DNA of 64,000 nucleotides, from assembly GCA_963723515.1 (NCBI GenBank), contig CAVRQT010000002.1:736001-800000 (forward strand). Reading direction: 5' to 3'. Below, one piece after another: positions 1,792 to 16,292 of this stretch. The notes under the pieces were generated by a model that was given only the letters and a program-made list of their open reading frames with translations, ran no database searches and was not told the DNA's origin. The translations under genes and the position numbers were made by a program. The number at the start of each line of letters is the position of its first letter. The stretch's first letter is position 1. The DNA is from Vulcanimicrobiota bacterium. GTDB taxonomy: Bacteria > Vulcanimicrobiota > Vulcanimicrobiia > Vulcanimicrobiales > Vulcanimicrobiaceae.

Positions 1792-2655
1792 ATGACTCAT
1801 GTACCGGTTCTGCGTGCGCAAGCGCTCGAGTTCTTGGCGGTGCGCCCAGATGGCATCTATGTCGATGCAACCTTCGGCGCGGGCGGCCATACGAAAGAGA
1901 TCTTGAAACGCATGGCTTCCGGGCGGCTCATTGCTATCGATCTCGATCCCTCATGCCAGCACCGCTTCGAACATCCGGCGCTCACTTTTGTGCGCGACAA
2001 CTTTCGCAACCTCGATCGAATTCTCGATGCGCACGAGATAGCGCAAATCGATGGGGTGCTTTTCGACTTAGGGGTCTCCTCGATGCAGTTTGATCTTCCT
2101 GAACGCGGCTTTTCGTTTCGAGAAGCCGGCCCATTGGATATGCGCATGAACACGGCCGCGGGCGCGAGCGCTTACGACATTCTCGCAACTGCCAGTGAAT
2201 CTGAACTCGCCGATATCTTCTTCAGATATGGGCAGGAGCGAGCGAGCCGTAGACTCGCGCACGCGGTCGTACTCCGGCGCAAAGCGGGAGCGCTCCCCAC
2301 GACGACCACGGAATTTGCCTCGCTCGTCAGCGGCGTGCTGCACCGCTCAGGGCATCGAGAGCGGATCCATCCGGCGACGCGGGTCTTTCAAGCGCTGCGC
2401 ATCGCGGTCAACGACGAGCTGCAGTCATTGCGCGAAGGGTTGCAAGCGGCGGCCGGCCGGCTTCGCGCTACAGGCCGCATCGTCGCGATCAGCTTTCATT
2501 CGCTGGAAGACCGCATCGTCAAGAACGCATTTCGTGACGATCGCCGCCTCAACGTTCTAACGCGCAAGCCGATCGTTCCCTCGGCGGATGAAATCGCGGA
2601 GAATCCACGCGCGCGCAGTGCAAAACTACGCGCCGCCGAGCGAAAAGCAAGCTAA
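1792..2655 (+). CDS. rsmH: 16S rRNA m4C1402 methyltransferase RsmH (MraW)
   Basis: HVPVL, DATFGAGGH, DLGVSSMQ, PLDMRM, FQALRIAVN, SFHSLEDR, NPRARSAKLR. Confidence 0.98.
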   Translation: MTHVPVLRAQALEFLAVRPDGIYVDATFGAGGHTKEILKRMASGRLIAIDLDPSCQHRFEHPALTFVRDNFRNLDRILDAHEIAQIDGVLFDLGVSSMQFDLPERGFSFREAGPLDMRMNTAAGASAYDILATASESELADIFFRYGQERASRRLAHAVVLRRKAGALPTTTTEFASLVSGVLHRSGHRERIHPATRVFQALRIAVNDELQSLREGLQAAAGRLRATGRIVAISFHSLEDRIVKNAFRDDRRLNVLTRKPIVPSADEIAENPRARSAKLRAAERKAS

Positions 2656-3089
2656 TGGTCGCGCCGCGACTCATCGAGAAACCGCGCGTACGCAACGTGC
2701 GCACTGCACGCGTCGCGGCGGTTCAGCGCCGGAACCGGCCCGCGAACATGCGATGCGCAGCGCTGCAGCGCTTCTTCATCCTGTTCACGGTCATACTGGC
2801 TTTCTTGATCGGATACGTGATGCTGATCTCCGATCTCACGGGCCTCGATTACGCCGTCGCGCGCGCCGAAGCCCAACGCGTCGCACTGCAAGACGAAACC
2901 GCGCGACTCGACGACCGCATCGCACTGTTGCGTTCGCAAGAACGCCTCGCTGCGATCGCTGCTGAGTTCGGCATGAAGGATGCGCAGCAGTTCGCGATCG
3001 TCACCGTACCGCCGTCGCAGCAGCCTCGCGCGCCGCATCCACGCCTAGCGTGGCTTTCGACCTTCGGTTCACTCGGAACAACCCACTAA
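2655..3089 (+). CDS. ftsL: FtsL-like cell division protein
   Basis: Single TM followed by a coiled coil; canonical position between rsmH and ftsI. Confidence 0.65.
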   Translation: MVAPRLIEKPRVRNVRTARVAAVQRRNRPANMRCAALQRFFILFTVILAFLIGYVMLISDLTGLDYAVARAEAQRVALQDETARLDDRIALLRSQERLAAIAAEFGMKDAQQFAIVTVPPSQQPRAPHPRLAWLSTFGSLGTTH

Positions 3090-3113
3090 AGTGCGCCACT
3101 AGTTCTTTTTTAA

Positions 3114-4890
3114 TTGCATCCGAGAACATTCACGCGCATCGGTCCGCTTCGTGCGAAGCTGATCTTTTACGGCGTCTTCGCGATCGCGCTCTTCCTGACG
3201 TGGCGGCTTTGCGATTTTCAGATCATTCAAGGGCCCGTGCTTGCCAAAGAGGCGCTCGAACAGCGTTCCAACACGATCGAAGTTTTCGCTCGGCGCGGCA
3301 ACATCTACGACAAGGACGGCAACGTTCTGGTCCGGTCGTTGCCCTCTGAAAGCATTTATGCTGTTCCCAGCCAGCTAAGCGATCCTGACGCAACCGCGCG
3401 AAAATTAAGCGCGATACTAGGAACCCTCGGACCGGCGGTGATTTCGGGCTTACACGATCGTCATTTACAGTTCACGTGGGTCGCGCGCAAAGTTTCGACG
3501 GACGTTGCGGCACGGGTGCGCGCTGCAAATCTGGAAGGGATCGATTTTAAAGCGGAGGATACCGGGCGCCGTTACGATACCGTTGGCCATCTCGCATCGA
3601 CGGTGCTTGGCTTTGTCGGCATCGACGAAAACGGGCTCGACGGCGTCGAATATCAATACGATTCACTCCTGCGCGGGGACACCGGACGCATCTCGCTTGA
3701 AACCGACCAGTTCAAACGCCCGATCCCCTTCGGCGACCAGATCGTGTTGCGGCCGGCGAAGCCCGGGTACAGTGTCGCCCTCACGATTGACTCGTATTTG
3801 CAGTACCAAACGGAGCGCGTGCTCGCCGAACAGGTCAAAGAATTTTCTGCGGAAAGCGGCAGTGCGCTGGTCATGGACCCATGGACCGGCGCAATTTTGG
3901 CGCTGGCCAACGTTCCCGACTACCAGCCGAACGATTTTTCACATGCGTCGCCGGATGCGCGGCGGGATCGGGCGGTCATGGATGCCTATGAGCCCGGCTC
4001 AACATTTAAGCTCGTGACGGCCGCCGCGGCGCTCGAAAGCGGCGCGGTGACGACCGAATCTCGGTTTCCCGCGCGCGACAGTTTGGAGATTGGCGGCCGC
4101 GTGCTGCATAACGCGGAAGATGGGTTCATGGCCGGAACCGGCGGCAGTGAAACGCTCGAGCAAATCATCGAATACTCCCACAATATCGGGGCCGCAGAAG
4201 TCGGCTTACGCATCGGCGCACATCGGCTTTACAACATGATCCGCAACGCGCAGTTCGGCGAGCCCACGCAAATTGGATTGCCTGGCGAAAACCCCGGCAT
4301 CGTGCCGGCGCTCAACGATTGGAGCTCCTCATCGTTACCCACAATCGCCTTTGGGCAAGGCGTCTCTGTGACACCGCTCGCGCTCGCGCGGTTTTACGCG
4401 GCAATTGCGAACGGCGGCGTCTTACTGCGTCCGCGGATTCTCTCGGCAATCTTCGACGAACATGGGAACGTGATCTATCGTTACGGTCGCGAGGTCGAAC
4501 ATCGCATCTTCTCGCGCCGGACCGCGGCGACGCTGCGCCGATTCTTGCGGTCGGTCGTCTTGCGCGGGCACTGGTGATCCGACCGCACAGATTCCGGGCT
4601 ACACCACGGCCGGAAAGACCGGGACGGCGCAAGTCGTTGAAAACGGCGATTATGCGCCCGGCGAGTACGTCGCGTCCTTTGTCGGAATGGTGCCGGCCGA
4701 ACATCCGCGGTACTTGATTCTTGTTAAAGTCACAAAACCGCGCGGCGCGATCTACGGGAGCGTCGTTGCGGCGCCAGGGTTTGCCAAGATCGCGATGATT
4801 GCAATGCTCCACGCGGGAGTATTGCCAAACGTGCCGTCGCCCTCGCCCGCGCCGGTTCGCTTGGTTCGCCGGGTCAAAAAGGCGAACTAG
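3114..4890 (+). CDS. ftsI: class B penicillin-binding protein FtsI/SpoVD-like (frameshift near 4570, probably an error)
   Basis: RGNIYD, EPGSTFK (SxxK), SHN (SxN); the KTGTAQ motif is in the shifted frame, which ends at 4890. Confidence 0.9.
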
Positions 4891-4896
4891 CCCGCC

Positions 4897-6319
4897 GTGG
4901 CTTCAGCGGCACCATCATTTCCCGCGACAGAAATCGTGCGCGGCGCTTCCGCTTTGACGGTTGACTCTCGCAGCGCATCCGAGGGTGCAATCTTTGTGGC
5001 GATGCGCGGCACGCGTACGGACGGACATCGGTTCATCGACGACGCGATTGCGCGCGGTGCTCGCACGATCGTCATGGAGGAGCGCCGTGAATTGCCACCG
5101 GGCGTGCGCGGCTTCATCGTTGCGGATTCGTCGCAGGCCCTTGCGGAGCTCGCCAGCGCGTTTTACGGCGCGCCTGCGTCCGGACTGACGCTGATCGGCG
5201 TCACGGGAACGAACGGCAAGACCACAACCGCGCACATGATTGCATCGATCTTCAATGCGTCCGGAAAGTGCACCGGTGTCGTCGGTACGCTCGGCGCATC
5301 GTTGCCGAATTACCACCTGCCGCTCAAGAACACGACGCCGCTTGCGCATGAGCTGCACAAGACACTCGCCGATTTACGTCAACACGGCGCGCAAACGGTC
5401 GTCTTGGAAGTCAGTTCCCATGCGCTTGCGCTTGGGCGCGTTGCAGGCCTTCGGTTCGCCGTCGCGGCCTTGACGAACGTCACACGCGACCATCTCGACT
5501 TCCACGGCACATTTGAATCCTATGCGACGGCAAAGCGCGCGCTCTTCGGTGCATGCGAGCGCGCCGTCTTCAACGTTGACGATGAATGCGGAGCAGCGTG
5601 GGCCGGAAGCTTCGATGCGTCACGAACCCTGACATACTCGCTGCGCTCTCATGCTGATTTCGTCGCGGAAGATATTGCGTTGCGCAGCGACGGCTGCGGC
5701 TTCTCCGTCGATGGCATCCGGTTCGAAATTCCGATCGCCGGCCGATTCAACGTTGCCAATGCGCTCGCCGCAATAGCCGTAGCGCGCGCTTTGGATGTTC
5801 CACTCCCGTCCGCCGCACGGGGCTTGCGCGAATTGCATGCTGTGCGCGGGCGAATGGAAGCGCTTCAACCAAGTGGGCTGCAGGTCTTCATCGACTACGC
5901 GCACACGCCGGACGCACTTTCTGCCGCGCTCCGCTCGTTGCGCGAGCTCAGGCCGAAGAGGCTGACCGTGGTCTTCGGTTGCGGCGGTGATCGCGATCAG
6001 GGAAAGCGCGCGCAAATGGGCGCGATTGCGGCACAACTCGCAGATCACGTCATCGTGACGTCCGATAACCCTCGCAGCGAAGCGCCCGCCGCTATTGCCG
6101 ATGCCATCCTCACAGGGATCGGATGCCGCGAAACATGAGGTGATTTTGGATCGGCGTCAGGCGATAGAACGTGCCATTGAACGCGCAGACCTTAACGACA
6201 TCGTGCTCGTTGCGGGTAAGGGGCATGAAGCTTATCAGATCATCGGCGAGCGAGTCGTCCCGTTCGACGATCGGCAGATTGCTGCCGATGCGCTACGCCG
6301 CCGAAGTGACGGAACCTAA
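4897..6319 (+). CDS. murE: UDP-MurNAc-tripeptide ligase MurE, meso-DAP type (frameshift near 6125)
   Basis: GVTGTNGKTT, EVSSH, DYAHTPD, FGCGGDRD, DNPR; AGKGHE C-terminus in the next frame. Confidence 0.95.
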
Positions 6320-7695
6320 TGTCGCTCAGCTTCGCGGAAGCGGTTGACGCAGTGAATGCAAAGCCGCCGGCAAAACGCAATGGTCCTTCCCAAGTCGTCG
6401 TCTCCACGGATACGCGTACCATTCATACCGGAGAGACGTTCTTAGCGCTTCGTGGCGAGCGGTTTGACGGTCATCAGTTTGTCGACGCTGCACTGCAGCG
6501 CGGTGCGGCCGCGTTGATCGTTGAAGAGCCGCCAAAGGAGTCGCACGGCGTTCCCGTTCTCGTTGTCGACGACACACTATCGGCTTATATGAAGCTGGCG
6601 GCTGTCGCCCGCGCGAAGTTGCGCGCCACGATCGTTGCGATCACCGGCAGCAATGGAAAGACGACGACGAAGGCGCTCTTAGGCCAGTTGCTGCAGCGAA
6701 ATTTTGGCAACGCGATTGCCGTTTCGCCGTCGAACGAAAACAATGAGATCGGCGTCAGCAGGTTGTTCTTGAACGCGCCGATTGATGCGCGCGTCATCGT
6801 TGTCGAAATGGGGGCGCGGCATTATGGCGACATCGCGACGCTGGTCAACATCGCGCGGCCCGATATCGGTGTCTTGACGAACGTGCGTGAAGCACATCTC
6901 GAAATCATGCAGACGCCGGAACGATTAGCGCAAACAAAGTGGGCGCTGTTTTCAACCGGCGCGCGTGCGGTACTCAACGCGGGCGATGGAGTGTCGCGGG
7001 AGCGCGCCGCTACACTTGAGCGCCCACCGCGATGGTTCGGCGCCGGAAATATTGCGTGGCCTCAGATGCACAAAGGAGAATCGGGCGTCTTTTTCGTTGA
7101 TCGGCAGACGCTTCGACTCGTCGAAGGCGGTCGTGAAACGACGTACGAGGTGAATGTGAATCTGCCGGGCGACTACAACTTAGAGAATCTCGCCGCAGCG
7201 ACTGCGGCCGCGCTGGAAGTGGGTTGCGAACCGCAATCTCTCCTGGGACAACTTGCGCAGCTCACGTTGCCGGCTGGCCGCTACGAGACGATTTGCATTC
7301 CGAATCGTCCCCGAATCATCTTCGATGCGTATAATGCGTCGCTAAGCGCAATGATGGCGACGCTTGATGCTTTCGCGAAGGAAAATGCGCGCCTGAAGAT
7401 TGCGGTCTTAGGAAGTATGGCCGAATTGGGGGATGCGTCGGCGGAATTTCACCGGCAAGCCGGCGCGCATGCCGCAACGGCGGGCATCGGCTACCTCCTA
7501 GTAGGTGGAGAGAATGCCGGCGATCTGCGACGCGGCGCCCAAAGCGCGGGTTTTAGCGCGGATCGCATCATCGAATTTAAAACGAATGGTGAAGCGGCGC
7601 AGTGGATTGGCGAGCATGCGACTCCAAGCGATGTCGTCTTCCTCAAAGGATCTCGCCGCTACAAACTTGAGGAGATCATCGAGGCGTTGCGTTAG
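6319..7695 (+). CDS. murF: UDP-MurNAc-pentapeptide ligase MurF
   Basis: DTR, ITGSNGKTTTK, NNEIG, EMG, DAYNA, MAELG, KGSR. Confidence 0.96.
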   Translation: MSLSFAEAVDAVNAKPPAKRNGPSQVVVSTDTRTIHTGETFLALRGERFDGHQFVDAALQRGAAALIVEEPPKESHGVPVLVVDDTLSAYMKLAAVARAKLRATIVAITGSNGKTTTKALLGQLLQRNFGNAIAVSPSNENNEIGVSRLFLNAPIDARVIVVEMGARHYGDIATLVNIARPDIGVLTNVREAHLEIMQTPERLAQTKWALFSTGARAVLNAGDGVSRERAATLERPPRWFGAGNIAWPQMHKGESGVFFVDRQTLRLVEGGRETTYEVNVNLPGDYNLENLAAATAAALEVGCEPQSLLGQLAQLTLPAGRYETICIPNRPRIIFDAYNASLSAMMATLDAFAKENARLKIAVLGSMAELGDASAEFHRQAGAHAATAGIGYLLVGGENAGDLRRGAQSAGFSADRIIEFKTNGEAAQWIGEHATPSDVVFLKGSRRYKLEEIIEALR

Positions 7696-8403
7696 GTGAG
7701 CCGCCCGCTCGTGCTTGAAAGGCCGCAAAGGTTGCAGGGCGTCGTTGCGATTCCCGTGCGCACGCGGGTCGTTCAGCCGGGCGATGATTTCTTGACGACC
7801 GTTGCGGATGCGGTACGTGGAATCGCTGTAGCGGGCGACGTCGTGGCCGTCTCTGAAACTGCGCTCGCCATCGCGCAAGGCCAGACGCTGCCGGCGCAGG
7901 CGGTGCGTCCATCGAACCTCGCGCACTTCATCTGCCGCTACGCCGCACCGCTGGCGACGGTGAATCAGCCGGAGTCGCTGCAAATCGTCATCGATCGCGT
8001 TGGGGCGCCCAAAGTCGTTTTGGCATGCGTCGCGCAAGTGCTGGGCCGGCTCGTTGGGCAGCGCGGACTTTTCTATCGCGTTATGGGACCCGCGCTTACC
8101 GCCATCGACGGATATACCGGCACGATGCCGCCGTTCGACCGCGTGATCGTCTTTGAACCCCACGAGCCCGATGCATTTGCGCAATCGTTTTTCGAACGTA
8201 CCGGCATCGACTGCGCGATCGCCGACGCAAACGACCTCACACCGGCAAAGCTCTTGGGTGCTTCGCGCGATGTAGCGCGCGAGGTTGTCGCTCGTGCACT
8301 CGATGAAAATCCACACGGTAATTCGGACGAGCAAACGCCGATTGTCGTACTGAAGTGGCGGGGCGAGGGAGCCAGTCCGCTACGCGTGAGCGAGACGGCG
8401 TGA
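7696..8403 (+). CDS. F420-0:gamma-glutamyl ligase (CofE/DUF129) superfamily protein
   Basis: IPVRTRVVQPGDD, GDVVAVSE..AIAQG, DANDL, NPHGNSDEQTPIVV motifs; abuts murF and overlaps the mraY start. Confidence 0.8.
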   Translation: MSRPLVLERPQRLQGVVAIPVRTRVVQPGDDFLTTVADAVRGIAVAGDVVAVSETALAIAQGQTLPAQAVRPSNLAHFICRYAAPLATVNQPESLQIVIDRVGAPKVVLACVAQVLGRLVGQRGLFYRVMGPALTAIDGYTGTMPPFDRVIVFEPHEPDAFAQSFFERTGIDCAIADANDLTPAKLLGASRDVAREVVARALDENPHGNSDEQTPIVVLKWRGEGASPLRVSETA

Positions 8404-9377
8404 GCTGGTCGAGCATACTGTTGGCCGTTGCGTTCGGCTTTGCGATCACATTGGCGGCAGGTGCGCTGCTGTTGCGTTTGCTGCCTCGGTTCCAACTGCG
8501 ACAGACTGCGTATGAAGATGCGCCGCGAACGCATCAAAGCAAGACTGGGACGCCGACGATGGGCGGCCTTGCAATTCTCGCGGCGATGATCCCGCCGTTG
8601 ATTCTGTTCGCGTCGAGTGATCGTCTCGGCGAGGCGCTCGTATTGCTCGTCTTCGCTTGCGCCGCAATCGGCTGTCTCGATGATTATCTCGGGACGCGTA
8701 AAGGAAAGGCGCGCGGCCTTCGCGCGCGCACGAAGTACCTTGCTACGGCACTTGCGGCGGTCATTTTCTTACGGTACGTTTCGGCCGTGCTGCCTCACAC
8801 CGGCAGCGCCTATCCGCTCTTTTCAGCGGGCACGCTGACCCTGAACGCACCGCTTTGGTTGTGGCTCACGCTTGGCACGCTCGCCATCACGGGCACGATT
8901 CACGCCGTTAACCTGACGGATGGGCTCGATGGTTTAGCGGCGGGCGCGATCGTCGCGCCGCTCGCTGCAACGTTCGCGATTGCGGTTTCTTTCCACGAGT
9001 TCACCGCAACGGGCTGGCCGCTCTTGCTGTTGCTTGCCATCGGCGCCTGTCTCGGATTCCTCGTATATAACTACCATCCGGCCAAGATGTTCATGGGCGA
9101 CACGGGGTCGCTAGCGCTCGGTGCGCTGCTCGCCGGGGCTGCGATCTTGAGCGGCGAGATGCTCATGCTGATCCTTATCGGCGGCGTCTTCGTCGCTGAA
9201 GCGCTTTCGGTCATCCTGCAAGTGGCGTATTTCAAGTTGACGCACCGCCGAATCTTTCGGATGAGCCCGCTTCATCATCACTTTGAGCTTGGCGGATTGA
9301 ACGAACCAATCGTCACGCTTCGCTTTTGGACAGCCTCGATCGTCTGCTCACTTGTCGGATGGGCAGTCGTTCGATGA
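8400..9377 (+). CDS. mraY: phospho-MurNAc-pentapeptide transferase MraY
   Basis: KTGTPTMGG, LDDY, NLTDGLDGL, FMGDTGS, MSPLHHHFE; GTG start in a GTGA overlap. Confidence 0.97.
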   Translation: MSWSSILLAVAFGFAITLAAGALLLRLLPRFQLRQTAYEDAPRTHQSKTGTPTMGGLAILAAMIPPLILFASSDRLGEALVLLVFACAAIGCLDDYLGTRKGKARGLRARTKYLATALAAVIFLRYVSAVLPHTGSAYPLFSAGTLTLNAPLWLWLTLGTLAITGTIHAVNLTDGLDGLAAGAIVAPLAATFAIAVSFHEFTATGWPLLLLLAIGACLGFLVYNYHPAKMFMGDTGSLALGALLAGAAILSGEMLMLILIGGVFVAEALSVILQVAYFKLTHRRIFRMSPLHHHFELGGLNEPIVTLRFWTASIVCSLVGWAVVR

Positions 9378-10741
9378 ACGCCGTGTTGGTGATTGGAGCG
9401 GGCCGCACGGGACAGGCCTGCGCGGAAATTTTGGGTGCTCGCGGCGTGCGCGTCTTCGTGACCGATGAAGAAGCCCCGAAAAAATTGGAGCGCGCAATCG
9501 CCACAATTCGCTCCGCGGGCGCCGAATTTGTTCCAGCCCAACAGGTTCAGGCGTTGCTGCCGGAGGTCCACCGTGCGGTTCTCTCACCGGGCGTTCCGCT
9601 GCAGGGTGCGTTCGCGCAACGTATCGCTGCCAGCGTGCCTGTTGTAAGCGAAATCGAACTCGCGTACGAGTTGTCCAAGGCGCCGATCATCGCCGTGACG
9701 GGAACGAAGGGAAAATCGACCACGACGGCGCTGATTGCGCACCTTTTGCGGTGCGCCGGCAATTCGGTTCGCGTCGGCGGCAACATCGGGAATCCGCTCG
9801 TGCGCGAAGCCTCCGCTGCGACGAGCGGCGACTGGCTCGTTGCTGAAGTTTCCTCGTTCCAATTGGAGACGATCCGAGCGTTCAAGCCTCGCATCGCCGT
9901 CCTGCTGAACATTTCCGACGATCACTTGGACCGCTATCCGTCGCTTGAAGACTACGCACGCGCGAAATATCGGGTCTTTGAGAACCAAGACGCGGACGAC
10001 GTCTTCGTCGGGAATCGTGATGATACGCGCGCTGCCGGCGCAGCGCAAACCATTCGGGCGAAACAACTCTGGTTCACGATGCGAAGCCCGGCTTCCGATG
10101 CCGCTGCCTTCGTGCGAGATCAGGCGCTGTGGTATCGGCCCCTAAAGGCGCCGCCGGAACGCATAATCGACCGCTCGGACATCGCATTGCCAGGCGAGCA
10201 CAATCTGCAAAATGTCTTAGCGGCAATGCTGGTGGCGGTTGCTTCAGGTGCTACTCCGCAATCCATCCGGGAAAGCATACCGTCGTTCGAACCGATGGAG
10301 CACCGCCTCGAAACGATCGGTGAAATCGGCGGCGTGCGGTACGTTGACGACTCCAAAGCGACAAACCCCGCCGCTGTTATCGCGGCGCTTAGCGCGTTCA
10401 AATCTCCCATCGTGTTGATTGCTGGAGGCAAATCGAAAGGCGCGGATCTTTCGGAGCTTGGCCAGATGATCCGCAAGCGCGTCAAGGCGCTCATTCTGCT
10501 TGGCGAATCCGCCGATACGCTGGCGCGGGCGAGCAGCCCGACGCCGTCGACATGCGCTTCGACGATCGAAGAAGCTGTTCAGCTCGCGCGTGAGCGTGCA
10601 GTCGCCGATGACGTCGTGTTGCTTTCACCTGCTGCGGCTTCATTTGACATGTTCGCTTCCGCTGAAGAGCGCGGCGATCGCTTCGCCGCGGCGGTCCGTA
10701 ATCTCGAACGTGAAGGCATGCGGGAAACGGCCGATGCGTAG
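9374..10741 (+). CDS. murD: UDP-MurNAc-L-Ala:D-Glu ligase MurD
   Basis: SPGVP, GTKGKSTTT, GGNIG, EVSSFQL, DHLDRY, HRLE, DDSKATN, LSPAAASFD. Confidence 0.97.
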   Translation: MNAVLVIGAGRTGQACAEILGARGVRVFVTDEEAPKKLERAIATIRSAGAEFVPAQQVQALLPEVHRAVLSPGVPLQGAFAQRIAASVPVVSEIELAYELSKAPIIAVTGTKGKSTTTALIAHLLRCAGNSVRVGGNIGNPLVREASAATSGDWLVAEVSSFQLETIRAFKPRIAVLLNISDDHLDRYPSLEDYARAKYRVFENQDADDVFVGNRDDTRAAGAAQTIRAKQLWFTMRSPASDAAAFVRDQALWYRPLKAPPERIIDRSDIALPGEHNLQNVLAAMLVAVASGATPQSIRESIPSFEPMEHRLETIGEIGGVRYVDDSKATNPAAVIAALSAFKSPIVLIAGGKSKGADLSELGQMIRKRVKALILLGESADTLARASSPTPSTCASTIEEAVQLARERAVADDVVLLSPAAASFDMFASAEERGDRFAAAVRNLEREGMRETADA

Positions 10742-11888
10742 CGCCGCGGCGCTCGAAGATCGGCGCTCGCCGGCGATCCGTTCCTTCATTACTGCGCCCC
10801 CTGACGCGGTGTTGATCTCATCGATCGCGATCTTGGTCGGCATCGGACTCGTGATGATCTTCAGCGCTTCAAGCGCGCTCGCGTTCGCCGTTCATCATGA
10901 CGCGACGTACTACCTCAAACGCCAGGCTCTCTGGCTCGCAGTCGCGCTCGCTTTGGCATATGCGGCTTACCGTCTCGACTACAACAAACTGAAGGCAGTC
11001 TCGCCGTTGCTCTTCATTTTGAGCGTCATCAGTTTGCTCGCCGTGCTCGTTCCGCATGTCGGCATCGTTGTCAATACGTCACGGCGCTGGCTGGGTGCCG
11101 GCTCGCTTGCGGTGCAGCCTTCTGAATTTGCGAAGCTTGCGCTCGTACTGTTCTTGGCGGCGAAACTGAGCTCGCGCGGCGAGCGCATTACGTCGCTCGT
11201 GCGCGGTGTCGGGCCGCTTTGCATCGCCATCGCGATTGTCGTCATGCTGGTGCTCAAAGAGCCGGATATGGGAACGGCCAGCTTGCTCGCAATCGTCGCG
11301 TTCACGATGCTCTTTGCCGCCGGCGCGCGGATCGATCATCTGATCCTGATTTTGGTCTCGACGGTGCCCATCGTCGCCCTGGAACTACTGGCCGATCCAT
11401 ACAAGCGTGCGCGCGCGCTTGCGTTCTTGAATCCGTGGAAGGATCCGCAGAATACCGGCTTCCACATCGTGCAGTCACTGCTTGCGCTCGGCAGCGGCGG
11501 CATCTTCGGCGTGGGTCTAGGCGCTTCGCGCGCCAAGTTTTTCTATTTGCCCGAGCAGTACACGGATTTCATTTACGCCGTTCTGGGCGAGGAGCTGGGG
11601 TTGATCGGCGCCGTCGGTGTCATTCTGCTCTTCATCATCTTCGCGCATCGCGCAATTCGGATTGCACTCAGTGCTCCCGATCGCTTCGGATTCTTTCTCA
11701 CGATCGGCTGCACCGCGTTGATCGTTTTCCAAGCGCTGCTCAACATTGGAGTCGTTACATCGTCATGGCCCGTCACCGGAGTTCCGTTGCCGTTCATCTC
11801 GTTCGGCGGCAGTTCGCTGGTGGTGTGTCTCGTCGCGGTCGCGCTCATTCTGAACGTCGGACGAGCGCGCCGCGTCGGCGCGCGGTGA
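10734..11888 (+). CDS. ftsW: SEDS family peptidoglycan polymerase FtsW
   Basis: RRWL, QPSEFAK, EPDMG, YLPEQYTDFI, PVTGVPLPFISFGGSS. Confidence 0.96.
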   Translation: MRSAAALEDRRSPAIRSFITAPPDAVLISSIAILVGIGLVMIFSASSALAFAVHHDATYYLKRQALWLAVALALAYAAYRLDYNKLKAVSPLLFILSVISLLAVLVPHVGIVVNTSRRWLGAGSLAVQPSEFAKLALVLFLAAKLSSRGERITSLVRGVGPLCIAIAIVVMLVLKEPDMGTASLLAIVAFTMLFAAGARIDHLILILVSTVPIVALELLADPYKRARALAFLNPWKDPQNTGFHIVQSLLALGSGGIFGVGLGASRAKFFYLPEQYTDFIYAVLGEELGLIGAVGVILLFIIFAHRAIRIALSAPDRFGFFLTIGCTALIVFQALLNIGVVTSSWPVTGVPLPFISFGGSSLVVCLVAVALILNVGRARRVGAR

Positions 11889-13006
11889 GGGTGACGTTTG
11901 CCGGCGGCGGTACGGGCGGACACCTCTATCCGGCAATCGCGATCGCCGACGCCCTCGCGGAAAAAGGAAAGTTACGCGCGCAGCCGGTTGACATAGGATT
12001 TTTCGGCGCCCGAGATCGTCTTGAAGCGCAAATCGTGCCGGCGGCCGGCTACAAATTGCACTTCGTGCCCTCATCACCGCTTGGAAAGCGTAGACCGCTC
12101 GATTTTGTATCCGCAGCGTTGCTCAATGGCGCCGGCACTTTCGCAGCGATTGCACTATTGCTCAAAGAGCGGCCGGTTCTCGTGGTTGCGACCGGAGGAT
12201 ACGTTTGCTTCCCGGTTGTGATGGCGGCGCGTCTCTTACGCACGTTGCGACTGCTTGCAAGCCCCATCGTTCTTTTGGAAATCAACGTGCGGCCGGGTCT
12301 CACGAATCGCACGCTGGCGCCGGCCGTCGATGAAGTTTGGGGCGCCTTCGACGATGAGCCACGCGAATTTGCCGGCCGATATCATGTGACCGGTGTGCCG
12401 GTGCGCGCGTCATTGCGGCAGTTGCCGCAGCGCGACTCGGCAGCACGACGTCTCGGTTTGGATCCGCTGAAGCGTACGTTGCTTGTCATGGGCGGCAGTC
12501 AAGGTGCGCGCTCGATCAATGACGCGCTGTTGGGGTTGCTCGCAAGTGAAGGCGTGCCGAGTGGATGGCAGGTGCTGCACCTTACGGGTGAAGCCGACTT
12601 TCGGCGCGTCGCAACCGCGTATCAAACACTTTCCGTAGCCGCAAAGACGATTGCGTTCCTAGCGGATCCGGCAGATGCGTATGCGTGCGCGGACCTCGTG
12701 CTAGCGCGCGCGGGGGCGGCGACGCTTGCCGAACTCGCAGCCGTAGGCTTGCCCGCGATCCTCGTTCCCTATCCGCACGCGAGCGAGGATCACCAGCGGA
12801 TCAATGCGCGACGCTTTGAGTCCGCAGGAGCGGCGAAAATCATCGAAGACCGTGCTTTGGATGGCGGCACGTTGCATCAAACCTTGACGAGCGTTCTCGA
12901 TCCGACGAGCTTGGAGCGGATGGCGCAAGCGGCCAGGCGGCTGAGCAAGCCCGACGCGTTAGATGCGATACTGGGTCGCGTTCACGAACTCACGGGTGCG
13001 CTTTGA
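11885..13006 (+). CDS. murG: lipid II GlcNAc transferase MurG
   Basis: GGGTGGHLYP, TGGYV, GGSQGA, RAGAATLAE, HQRINA; GTG start in a GTGA overlap. Confidence 0.96.
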   Translation: MRVTFAGGGTGGHLYPAIAIADALAEKGKLRAQPVDIGFFGARDRLEAQIVPAAGYKLHFVPSSPLGKRRPLDFVSAALLNGAGTFAAIALLLKERPVLVVATGGYVCFPVVMAARLLRTLRLLASPIVLLEINVRPGLTNRTLAPAVDEVWGAFDDEPREFAGRYHVTGVPVRASLRQLPQRDSAARRLGLDPLKRTLLVMGGSQGARSINDALLGLLASEGVPSGWQVLHLTGEADFRRVATAYQTLSVAAKTIAFLADPADAYACADLVLARAGAATLAELAAVGLPAILVPYPHASEDHQRINARRFESAGAAKIIEDRALDGGTLHQTLTSVLDPTSLERMAQAARRLSKPDALDAILGRVHELTGAL

Positions 13007-13028
13007 AGGCAGTCCGAAGAAGGCGCGC

Positions 13029-14408
13029 GTGAAAGGGGCGCTTCACTTCGTCGGAATCGGTGGTATCGGTATGAGCGCTATCGCGCGTATTCTGATGACG
13101 CGCGGCGACCGCATCAGCGGCTCCGATCTCCACGAGAGCCATCTCACGGAGCAATTACGTGGCGATGGCGCACACATCACGATCGGACACCGTGCGCGAA
13201 ACGTTGACGGGGCGCGCGCCGTCGTCATTAGTTCCGCGATTGGGCCGACGAATTGCGAATTTGTTGCCGCGAGCGAACGCGGGCTTGCGATCTACCGGCG
13301 TGGCGAAATGCTGGCACAACTGATGCGCGGTCGCCGCGGCATCGCAGTCGCGGGAACGCATGGCAAAACGACGACCACGGCGATGATTGCGTCGATCCTG
13401 AGCGGCGCGGGCCTCGATCCAACGGTGCTCATCGGTGGTGAAGCGATCGAGTGGGGCAGCAATGCACGCGATGGAAGCGGCGATTGGTTTCTTACGGAAG
13501 CCGATGAGTCGGACGGCTCGTTCATGGAGCTCGTTCCGGAAGTTGCGCTCGTCACAAATATTGAGAACGACCACATCGCCAGCGATGAAGAGCTGCCGCG
13601 CCTGCGCAGCGCTTTCGCCGGCTTCCTGCGTCGTTTGCCGGCGAACGGCGTGGCCGTTATCGGTGTCGATAATCCGGAAAGCGCGGCGCTCGCACGGTTG
13701 TCTCGCGTGGCACGAACGTTGACGTTCGGTTTATCGGAGCGCGCCGACATCCATGCGAAGAACGTGCGATACGAGCGCTTCGGATCGGCCTTCGATGCCG
13801 TGGCGGGCAAGAAGCGGATCGGCAGCGTGCAGTTGCGCGTTCCGGGAGAGATCAACATCTTGAACGCTCTGGGTGCGATCGCGATCGCGCAAACGCTCGA
13901 TGTTCCCATCTCCAAGACTGCCGCCGCGCTTTCTCGTTTTTCCGGCGTGCGCCGGCGTTTCGAGGTTCTCGCGCGCACGCCAAAGCTCACCATTGTCGAT
14001 GACTACGCGCACCACCCTACGGAGGTCAAGGCGACGATCGCGGCGGCACGCGCCTACCACCACGGGGAGCTGATCGTCGCATTCCAGCCGCATCGTTATA
14101 CGCGCACCGCGTACCTAGCGCATGATTTTGCGGATGCGCTCCGTGGAGCGCAGGCCGTTTTTCTCGTGCCGGTTTATGCCGCTTCCGAAATGCCGATTGA
14201 CGGGGTGAGCGAACGGTCGATCGGCGAACCGCTGCGGGCCGACGGCGCCGAAGTGCATTACGTTTTGGATCTCGACCAACTTCCACAGCGCATTTTAGAG
14301 CGTGCGTCACCCGGTTCGCTGGTGTTGATGCTTGGCGCGGGTGATATCACCGAGTATGCTGCAATGCTTGCCGGGCAGCTTCAAGAACGCACGCCGGTCA
14401 TCGCGTAG
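13029..14408 (+). CDS. murC: UDP-MurNAc:L-Ala ligase MurC
   Basis: HFVGIGGIGMS, AGTHGKTTTT, EADESDGSF, DDYAHHPTE, FQPHRYTR. Confidence 0.97.
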   Translation: MKGALHFVGIGGIGMSAIARILMTRGDRISGSDLHESHLTEQLRGDGAHITIGHRARNVDGARAVVISSAIGPTNCEFVAASERGLAIYRRGEMLAQLMRGRRGIAVAGTHGKTTTTAMIASILSGAGLDPTVLIGGEAIEWGSNARDGSGDWFLTEADESDGSFMELVPEVALVTNIENDHIASDEELPRLRSAFAGFLRRLPANGVAVIGVDNPESAALARLSRVARTLTFGLSERADIHAKNVRYERFGSAFDAVAGKKRIGSVQLRVPGEINILNALGAIAIAQTLDVPISKTAAALSRFSGVRRRFEVLARTPKLTIVDDYAHHPTEVKATIAAARAYHHGELIVAFQPHRYTRTAYLAHDFADALRGAQAVFLVPVYAASEMPIDGVSERSIGEPLRADGAEVHYVLDLDQLPQRILERASPGSLVLMLGAGDITEYAAMLAGQLQERTPVIA

Positions 14409-15358
14409 TGGCGATCGTGATGCAGCGCAGCCTGCTCTCCGATCGCGATCGCTCAGAACTTCGTGCTGTTTGCGGTGATTTCGTACGCTTCGATGAGCCG
14501 CTTGCGCCATACACGTCGTGGAAGATCGGCGGCCCTGCCGACGCGTGGATTCTCTGCGAGAGTGAAGCGCAAGTTGCGGAGGTGATGCGTTTCTGTCTGC
14601 GCCGCCGTCTGCCGTGGTTTGTTTTAGGCAGCGGTTCGAATCTGTTGATCGGTGATGGTGGCATTCGTGGCCTCGCCTTGCGTCTGGCAGGCGATTTTCT
14701 CTCGATCGACGCCGCCGCAACAGACGATGAAGTGGTCGTTGAAGCCGGTGCATCGGCTACGATGGCATTAATGACGGCAAAAGCCGCCTCGCACGGCGCG
14801 ATCGGCATCGACTCGCTCGTCGGCATTCCCGGAACGGTCGGCGGATCGCTGCGAATGAACGCCGGCACCGATCGTGAGATCGGCGAATTCGTCCGCAACG
14901 TTTGGGTGCAGTCGGTCTCGAAGCCGGAGCCGAGCGGCGTCAGCGTGCAGTATTACTATCGCCACACGTCGCTCGCCCGGGACGCAATCGTTTCGCGCGT
15001 GACGCTCGCATTTGAGCGCGGCGATCCCAAAGTCGTGCGTGAACAAGCGCAACGCCGGCTCGTACGCCGCAAAGAGACGCAGCCGATCGCCTTACCCAAC
15101 GCCGGATCGTGTTTTCGCAACCCACCCGATGATAAAGCGGCGCGGCTCATTGAAGCCGTCGGTGCGAAAGGCTGGCGTGAAGGCAATGCAGAGGTCTCGC
15201 CGCTACACGCCAACTTCATCAACAATCTCGGGGGTGCGCGCGCAAGTGACGTCGCGTCACTTTTGACGCGCGTGCGCCGCGCGGTGCACGAGCGGTTCGG
15301 AGTCGAGCTTCAGCTCGAGGTGCACCTCGTCGGAGTTTTTACGGCCGAAGATGGCTAG
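14408..15358 (+). CDS. murB: UDP-N-acetylenolpyruvoylglucosamine reductase MurB
   Basis: IGGPAD, GSGSNLL, GIPGTVGG..MNAG, NAGSCFRNP, HANFINN; start may be 14420. Confidence 0.96.
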   Translation: MAIVMQRSLLSDRDRSELRAVCGDFVRFDEPLAPYTSWKIGGPADAWILCESEAQVAEVMRFCLRRRLPWFVLGSGSNLLIGDGGIRGLALRLAGDFLSIDAAATDDEVVVEAGASATMALMTAKAASHGAIGIDSLVGIPGTVGGSLRMNAGTDREIGEFVRNVWVQSVSKPEPSGVSVQYYYRHTSLARDAIVSRVTLAFERGDPKVVREQAQRRLVRRKETQPIALPNAGSCFRNPPDDKAARLIEAVGAKGWREGNAEVSPLHANFINNLGGARASDVASLLTRVRRAVHERFGVELQLEVHLVGVFTAEDG

Positions 15359-16292
15359 CCGTCCCAAAGTCGCCGTCGTCATGGGGGGACCGAGCTGGGA
15401 GCGCGAGATTTCAATCGCATCCGGTTCGGAAGTGATGCGCGCGTTGCAGAACCTCGGTTACGAAGCCAAATCGCTCGATTACGATGCGCGCTTCGTCGAT
15501 GCGATCCGTAAGCTGGCGCCCGATGTCGTCTTCAACGCGTTACATGGGCCCGGCGGCGAAGACGGCCAGATTCAGGCCGTGCTCGACTGGCTTGGGATCC
15601 CGTATACGGGCAGCGCGATGCAAGCCGCGGCGGTTTCGATCGACAAACATCTGACGAAAAAATTGCTTGCCGCCGAAGGTCTGCCAACGCCCGTTTGGGA
15701 TCTCTTCGATCTTTCCGGCGGCACATTGCCGCTCTTACCGGGCGCCCTCAATTTGCCGCTGGTGGTCAAGCCGCGCTATGAGGGTTCAAGCGCCGGCGTT
15801 TCAATCGTGCGTTCGCACGAGCAGTGGAGCGCCGCAATGATCGATACCGCAAAAGAATTCGCTCAGGTGATTGCTGAGGAATTTGTGGGCGGACGGGAGT
15901 TTTCGTGCGGTGTCTTGGGTGAGGAAGCTTTGCCGGTTGCCGAAATCATTCCGACCCAAGACGAATTTTACAATTTCAACGCCAAATACCGGCCCGGAGC
16001 AAGCCGCCACCTGATCCCGGCGCCGATTGACGACGATCTTGCCTCGCGTTTGCAGATGCTCGCGCTTTCCGTGCATCGCATGATTGGGCTGCGGGACTAC
16101 TCCCGAACCGATTTCATCGTGACCGATGAAGGGCGACCTTATATCCTCGAAACGAATGCGCTTCCCGGCTTCACGCCGACGAGCATCATCCCTGATGAAT
16201 GCCGCATGATCGGCATGTCGTTCGAAATGCTGGTCGAGCGATTGATCGAGTTCGCGATGCAGCGCACCGAAGCGCAAGCCGTCGCCGGCTAG
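15351..16292 (+). CDS. ddl: D-alanine--D-alanine ligase
   Basis: GGPSWEREIS, LHGPGGEDG, PYTGS, GSSAG, AKY, ETNALPG. Confidence 0.96.
   Translation: MASRPKVAVVMGGPSWEREISIASGSEVMRALQNLGYEAKSLDYDARFVDAIRKLAPDVVFNALHGPGGEDGQIQAVLDWLGIPYTGSAMQAAAVSIDKHLTKKLLAAEGLPTPVWDLFDLSGGTLPLLPGALNLPLVVKPRYEGSSAGVSIVRSHEQWSAAMIDTAKEFAQVIAEEFVGGREFSCGVLGEEALPVAEIIPTQDEFYNFNAKYRPGASRHLIPAPIDDDLASRLQMLALSVHRMIGLRDYSRTDFIVTDEGRPYILETNALPGFTPTSIIPDECRMIGMSFEMLVERLIEFAMQRTEAQAVAG

Follow-up and report, generated by a model that had tools for sequence, protein, structure and literature searches.

What does a homolog of CofE, an enzyme of coenzyme F420 biosynthesis, do between murF and mraY in a bacterial dcw cluster? 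The question is raised by a 64,000-nucleotide stretch of DNA (the window; 736–800 kb of contig C2) from a genome of the phylum Eremiobacterota, in which a gene that we call X occupies exactly this place. To our knowledge, the list of steps that peptidoglycan synthesis takes in the cytoplasm is regarded as complete. An additional enzyme, conserved at the MurF–MraY junction throughout a phylum, would therefore imply a new step of precursor modification or salvage, and the case for a new precursor step is strengthened by the occasional physical fusion of the enzyme to MurF.

Gene X abuts murF and overlaps mraY in a complete dcw cluster

The window contains a complete dcw cluster (1792..16292, + strand) with the gene order mraW, ftsL-like, ftsI, murE, murF, X, mraY, murD, ftsW, murG, murC, murB and ddl, as established by Pfam searches on 13 ORFs and from the ORF list. 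Upstream of X is murF (6319..7695, + strand), coding for the UDP-MurNAc-tripeptide:D-Ala-D-Ala ligase (458 amino acids, with Mur_ligase, Mur_ligase_M and Mur_ligase_C domains), and downstream is mraY (8400..9377, + strand; Glycos_transf_4 and MraY_sig1 matches), whose frame is open from position 8355 and has a GTG codon at 8400. X itself (7696..8403, + strand) codes for 235 amino acids from a GTG start. Its junctions are as tight as the initial annotation of this locus had described: the murF stop codon (TAG, 7693–7695) is followed with zero spacer by the GTG of X at 7696, and the X stop codon (TGA, 8401–8403) is overlapped by the GTG of the mraY frame (8400–8402) to form GTGA. An alternative GTG at 7711 would give a 230-amino-acid form, as in database record P0002, but we favor the start at 7696 because relatives align from residues 1–5 of X.

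Three other genes of the cluster call for comment. Two of them, ftsI and murE, each seem to be interrupted by a frameshift. The ftsI frame (window 4380–4900) stops near 4577, and the part containing the KTG motif of the transpeptidase resumes in the next frame. Similarly, the murE frame (window 6000–6330) stops at 6138 and the C-terminal end of the protein resumes in another frame; an intact MurE of 495 amino acids is present in a relative (locus L035). With two essential genes broken within 2 kb, indels introduced during assembly seem a better explanation than pseudogenes. The listed ORF of murG (11219–13006) codes for 595 amino acids, with Pfam domains only from residue 225, and overlaps ftsW (10500–11888) by about 670 nt; the real murG start is probably much further downstream.

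X is conserved across the phylum and is sometimes fused to MurF

X is a real, strongly conserved gene. We found it in 149 of 151 sampled genomes of the phylum, including 120 of 120 high-quality ones, and the two genomes without it are only 75% and 67% complete. (The sample of 151 counts one unpublished genome, G128, and no claim depends on G128 alone.) The gene order murF–X–mraY is present in all 29 loci from the family to which the window belongs and in all four loci from the other two families of its class, so that both position and co-orientation are held in 33 of 33 loci of the class. Furthermore, X can be physically joined to MurF. At locus L035, murF and X form a single ORF of 744 amino acids with the layout MurF–linker–X, and the representative protein P0123 (736 amino acids) has the same architecture. 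Stop-free frames of 705–829 amino acids extend over the X match in ten genomes of the same class; the single ORF was verified for L035. The linkage to the dcw cluster, on which the initial annotation had made its proposal depend, is thus conserved in the family and in the class, and is reinforced by the MurF–X fusions.

In the sister classes of the phylum, the X proteins are 33–40% identical to that of the window and are 399–434 amino acids long. Their genes lie outside the dcw cluster in 16 of 16 loci and have variable neighbors (in one locus X follows a paralog of ddl). All 16 of these proteins have one hydrophobic helix at the N-terminus, followed by a beta-sandwich domain and then the CofE-like domain (model pLDDT 87.7), and in 14 of the 16, K and R residues are more numerous on the C-terminal side of the helix than on its N-terminal side. 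This three-part layout, together with the distribution of K and R around the helix, suggests that sister-class X may have its catalytic domain in the cytoplasm, tethered to the membrane. The beta-sandwich domain of the tethered proteins has generic structural matches only (Z up to 8.5); it belongs to no Pfam family in the 16 proteins (L039–L054), and its best matches are Ig-like, including the luminal domain of TMEM106B (Z 8.3). These proteins of about 400 residues also have a conserved 'GDC' motif right after the membrane helix. In a low-GC member of the phylum (locus L042, 296–3945), a NAGPA (phosphodiester glycosidase) gene, a ddl paralog and X lie on one strand and are followed by a DUF188 gene, and a NAGPA gene is also found upstream of X at locus L045.

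X has the fold of CofE and a remodeled middle

The CofE-like identity of X, which had been proposed from the sequence of the window, is upheld by both profile and structure comparisons. X matches the Pfam family PF01996 with a score of 36.3 bits, above the gathering cut-off of 25, although the coverage is partial: the match includes only residues 21–101, corresponding to profile positions 2–80 of 218. The more specific NCBIfam models are far from their cut-offs, with 20.3 bits vs 180.65 for the CofE equivalog TIGR01916, and 18.9 vs 274 for NF009809. An AF2 model of X, made from a 36-sequence alignment, has a pLDDT of 91.2 and a pTM of 0.87. When this model was compared with the PDB by Foldseek, the matches at E ≤ 0.001 were CofE entries only–2PHN, 2G9I and 7ULD–with E-values from 2.9e-10 to 2e-8 and TM scores of about 0.55. 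A VIA-align comparison with 48,161 chains gave a Z of 14.4 for 2phn_A (rmsd 3.1 over 180 residues) vs 4.8 for the runner-up chain. By hhalign, X matches six true CofE proteins of the same phylum with 98% probability (E = 1.8e-13, 148 columns), with the C-terminal third of X left unaligned. From the Pfam, AF2, Foldseek, VIA-align and profile–profile results we therefore conclude that X is a homolog of CofE and has the CofE fold, which FbiB also has in its N-terminal domain (PF01996, TIGR01916). A search of the ESM Atlas with X returned members of the same family only. We found no Pfam match to Mur_ligase_M or Mur_ligase_C in X, and no hydrophobic segment.

CofE uses GTP and two metal ions to convert a carboxylate into an acyl phosphate, to which the amino group of glutamate is then added (the relevant parts of PMC10861534 and PMC8498797), and the carboxylate on which it acts first belongs to the phospholactyl group (PMC10861534, same part). 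By analogy, X probably has this metal- and NTP-dependent type of carboxylate activation in common with CofE. The two share an N-terminal 'GD...QGR' segment, a P-x-x-P-D segment and the Asp of a 'D-x-x-G' strand. Among 36 diverse members of the X family, the invariant or near-invariant residues are T23, D48, E54, Q61, D138, D177, N179, D180, N205, P206, G208, T214 and P215. Of these, D177 is aligned by hhalign with the invariant Asp in the 'SD(S/T)FGR' segment of CofE; D138 is not placed by hhalign on the Asp of the CofE 'GVD' motif, and D210/E211, which are conserved in X, are unaligned to CofE by the same method.

The differences are also clear. In the strictly conserved 'SKAEGR' segment of CofE, the Lys corresponds to Ile59 in X and the Arg to Gln63 in the protein studied here (the X-family consensus is A-I-x-Q-G-R), and these replacements mean that nucleotide binding by X may be altered, or lost, relative to CofE. 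Residues 92–135 are swapped for helices that carry a family-specific invariant G-x-F-Y motif, as seen in both the alignment and the AF2 model, and about 30 residues that follow the D177 strand in CofE are absent. We regard X as a functionally new version of the CofE fold. It is unlike CofE in failing the equivalog model, in having no 'SK' lysine, in its dcw context and in the lack of an F420 pathway.

X as a candidate ligase acting on cell-wall precursors

X is probably a cell-wall precursor enzyme. We infer its catalytic activity, its ligase nature, and the nucleotide, substrate and added group, and the most economical reading, because of the fold, the acidic residues, the cytoplasmic side and the link to MurF and MraY, is that X is a cytoplasmic amide ligase, dependent on metal and NTP, whose substrate would be UDP-MurNAc-pentapeptide or lipid I. 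We put the chance of this reading at a little less than even. X would then be a soluble cytoplasmic enzyme with the CofE fold, operating outside F420 biosynthesis at the point where MurF hands over to MraY. The NTP and divalent metal ions would be held by D138, D177, D180 and D210/E211 (those other than D177 being putative metal ligands). An acyl phosphate would be formed on a free carboxylate, either in UDP-MurNAc-pentapeptide or, directly after the MraY step, in lipid I, and the activated carboxylate would be coupled by X to an amine, which could be ammonia, an amino acid or a diamine. The candidate carboxylates are the alpha-carboxyl of D-Glu and the free carboxyl of diaminopimelate. Searches of this genome gave no match to MurT_C and none above the cut-off to Mpl, and it therefore has no recognized enzyme for D-Glu amidation or peptide salvage.

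A wider form of this proposal is that X adds an amine or amino acid to a free stem-peptide carboxylate between MurF and MraY so as to create a new, phylum-wide peptidoglycan chemotype, and that the relatives found in Clostridia, Patescibacteria, WOR-3, Armatimonadota and other groups carry out the same or related decorations of precursors. We regard this wider form as possible but rather unlikely. If it were true, X would represent a third class of cell-wall amide ligases, structurally unrelated to the Mur and ATP-grasp classes.

The proposed reaction has parallels in known systems. The Mur ligases MurC–F and Mpl are ATP-dependent amide ligases that act on UDP-MurNAc or UDP-MurNAc-peptides through acyl phosphates; X has the operon of MurC–F in common with them, adjoins MurF and in some relatives is fused to it. 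The folds, however, are unrelated, and X lacks Mur_ligase domains. X does not replace any Mur ligase, because all four are present as well. The MurT/GatD and AsnB1/LtsA systems amidate D-Glu or DAP, and modify the free carboxylates of stem peptides on precursors at the cytoplasmic face of the membrane, as we propose for X. AsnB-type amidotransferases are among the fusion partners of X relatives. The folds of these systems differ from that of X, X itself lacks a glutaminase domain, and MurT_C was not found in the genome.

The initial annotation had also drawn an analogy with Selenomonas and Veillonella, where a diamine is attached to D-Glu at the alpha-carboxyl, a change on the cytoplasmic side at one of the positions that are candidates for X. 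For this analogy we obtained no specific support. Eremiobacterota differ in having the pyruvyl-transferase marker of an alternative SLH ligand (145 of 151 genomes), and an ordinary SLH ligand is therefore to be expected in the phylum. Diamine-modified D-Glu is confirmed in Negativicutes (parts of PMC10628300 and PMC12826042); the available parts of these two papers name no enzyme for the attachment, and the word 'transferase' has 0 occurrences in them. We had considered the presence of SLH proteins without a pyruvyl transferase as a sign of polyaminated peptidoglycan, and rejected it given that PS_pyruv_trans matches occur in the 145 genomes just mentioned, and in 70 of 71 genomes of the family. 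The genome of the window has two SLH frames and no PS_pyruv_trans match, a miss that is most simply due to its 88% completeness. A MurL-type epimerase in place of glutamate racemase was another candidate that we rejected: murI is present above the cut-off, and the part of a MurL review available to us (PMC8788868) gives a different distribution.

Since the phylum has a cultured member (Vulcanimicrobium alpinus; PMC9758169, in part), the function of X is directly testable; the same portion of that paper reports no peptidoglycan chemistry for this organism. Literature searches at the level of listings showed no account of CofE-like genes within dcw clusters, and in a review of F420 (PMC8498797) the terms 'CofE-like' and 'Eremiobacter' both have 0 occurrences.

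In a first alternative, X is not a ligase. The CofE fold would instead bind UDP-MurNAc-peptide or a lipid-linked precursor by means of its metal site, and X could hydrolyze or edit the precursor, transfer a phosphate group, or serve to regulate or chaperone its passage from MurF to MraY. Such a role would be in keeping with the disappearance of the CofE lysine, with the remodeling of the middle of the protein into helices with their invariant G-x-F-Y, and with the partial Pfam coverage, and a fusion to MurF fits channeling equally well. Against it, the acidic and polar residues of X are invariant across phyla, as is typical of a catalytic site, and the solved relatives of the fold are ligases only. 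We consider a non-ligase role unlikely.

Relatives of X in other phyla

An exhaustive search of representative sequences with X as query yielded 649 clusters at E ≤ 1e-3, and a degenerate peptide pattern identified 530 relatives among 557 matching stretches in species-representative genomes. We examined the genomic context of X outside the phylum at 80 loci of the 530 pattern-found relatives. These 80 loci are labeled as Bacillota/Clostridia, Limnochordia, many Patescibacteria groups, WOR-3, Armatimonadota, Thermotogota, Chloroflexota and others. The distribution of X is patchy–for example, it is present in 10 of 121 genomes from the phylum of one Parcubacteria-group carrier. The search with PF01996 did not find X in its bacterial control genomes, and because of this absence the family has gone unstudied.

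Only five of the 80 loci have dcw genes within the DNA that was fetched. Two of them, L122 and L125, are from genomes of about 1 Mb and have the gene order mraY–X–ftsW–murG–murC. In our tree they are placed deep inside a distant clade, far from the Eremiobacteria clade, and therefore represent a second, independent recruitment of X to a position next to mraY. We rejected the idea that X replaces MurD between mraY and ftsW in these small genomes, which keep at least four Mur-ligase frames.

We called 132 same-strand neighbors across the 80 loci. Peptidoglycan genes are neighbors of X in 12 loci: MurJ (L099 and L106), Peptidase_S11 with BlaI (L082 and L115), BlaI/BlaR1 (L128), VanW with PG_binding_4 (L108 and L123), YkuD with Amidase_2/SpoIID (L130), M23/LysM (L134), NamZ (L064), and the MraY/FtsW/MurG genes of L122 and L125. 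The link to peptidoglycan that had been suggested for X from its position is supported by these relatives, which are repeatedly found beside peptidoglycan enzymes, or fused to them; the other 68 of the 80 loci have no such neighbor.

Fusions were surveyed among 24 representatives picked for their unusual length. The partners of X in this set are MurF (1 protein), Amidase_3 (5), an AsnB-type amidotransferase (5), GNAT (1), a dipeptidase of the Sapep/PepV family (1) and Polysacc_deac_1 (1). The Amidase_3 fusions lack a signal peptide, and their domains are not separated by a membrane segment; for one of them (P0142), the closest NCBIfam model is CwlD, below its cut-off. In the deacetylase fusion (P0246), the X domain is followed by a hydrophobic stretch, as read by eye, and then by the deacetylase domain, an order that we count in favor of a cytoplasmic location of X.

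The amidase fusions are relevant to a second alternative, in which X is a salvage ligase, functionally analogous to Mpl, that couples stem peptides from recycling to UDP-MurNAc at its lactyl carboxylate and so feeds MraY in parallel to MurC–F. The chemistry would be the same as in the first step of CofE, an amine plus a lactyl carboxylate (in the part of PMC10861534 already cited). The CwlD-like Amidase_3 fusions, with their lack of signal peptide and membrane segment, and the NamZ, LD-transpeptidase and amidase neighbors are consistent with salvage, as is the observation that the best match to the Mpl model in this genome is MurC, at 174 bits vs a cut-off of 388.7. However, in Eremiobacteria X is not linked to a transporter for recycling or to any other gene of that process, and it would be unusual for a salvage enzyme to sit at the strictly conserved murF–mraY junction or to be fused to MurF. 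We consider a salvage role improbable.

A third alternative is that X has no function in the cell wall at all. The position of X in the dcw cluster does not by itself prove a cell-wall role, because dcw clusters include genes without one, such as rsmH/mraW. X might be a passenger in the operon that is co-transcribed in the same way as rsmH, for example a ligase for small peptides, osmolytes or the tail of a cofactor. The fusions to GNAT, to the PepV/Sapep dipeptidase and to AsnB, the last resembling an NAGGN amidotransferase, would allow some parts of the X family to act on small peptides, and the variable neighbors in the sister classes point the same way. So does a block found in 12 related Bacillota loci that consists of a pyruvate kinase gene, an AIR-synthase-like gene, X and an EamA transporter gene, with no cell-wall gene. 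A mere passenger is at odds, however, with the fusion of MurF to X, with the second independent insertion into a dcw cluster beside mraY, and with the recurrence of peptidoglycan neighbors and fusions in several phyla, and we give this alternative only a small chance. The AIR-synthase-like protein of these Bacillota loci (L063 and L065–L075) scores below every NCBIfam cut-off, its nearest models being ThiL, HypE and SelD, and it is an uncharacterized partner of X from the PurM superfamily.

X is a separate paralog of CofE, almost certainly unrelated to F420

The genome from which the window comes (2.1 Mb in 4 contigs, 88% complete) has one match to PF01996, which is X. Genome-wide profile searches found no match to cofC or cofD, and no F420 genes in the window, in agreement with what the initial annotation had noted for the window. 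Three cofH-like matches, all below the cut-off, lie at 123–168 kb of contig C2, outside the window. Thus, at the 88% completeness of this genome, there is no full F420 pathway that would need X.

True CofE, identified as matches above the cut-off, is present in 39 of the 151 genomes of the phylum, all of them outside the class to which the window belongs; within that class we found it in none of 82 genomes (0 of 71 in family f1, 0 of 1 in f2, 0 of 9 in f3, and not in the genome of the window). Because the 39 genomes with true CofE carry X too, X is a separate paralog of CofE. Similarly, in a quick maximum-likelihood tree the CofE sequences are on a very long branch apart from all X sequences. 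(The very long branches of three sequences, L078, L098 and L139, probably reflect mis-called ORFs; we left these sequences in the tree but based no conclusion on them.) X is almost certainly unrelated to F420. That it could be a genuine but divergent CofE, making the glutamate tail of F420, is suggested by the above-cut-off match to PF01996 and by database names such as 'coenzyme F420-0:L-glutamate ligase', but we give this virtually no credence in view of the equivalog score of 20.3 bits vs 180.65, the unmatched cofD and cofC, the distribution of true CofE (0 of 82 in the class, and beside X in 39 genomes elsewhere), the very long branch between CofE and X, and the occurrence of X in genomes of 0.5–1.2 Mb in the Patescibacteria-phylum sample.

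Public records mis-annotate the X family under the database name just quoted, which inflates the F420 capacity inferred for genomes of Eremiobacterota, Clostridia and Patescibacteria. At 123021–125952 of contig C2 there are two adjacent radical-SAM frames whose scores against the cofH model, 309 and 264 bits, are below its cut-off of 374; our guess is that they may be related enzymes of the menaquinone (futalosine) pathway.
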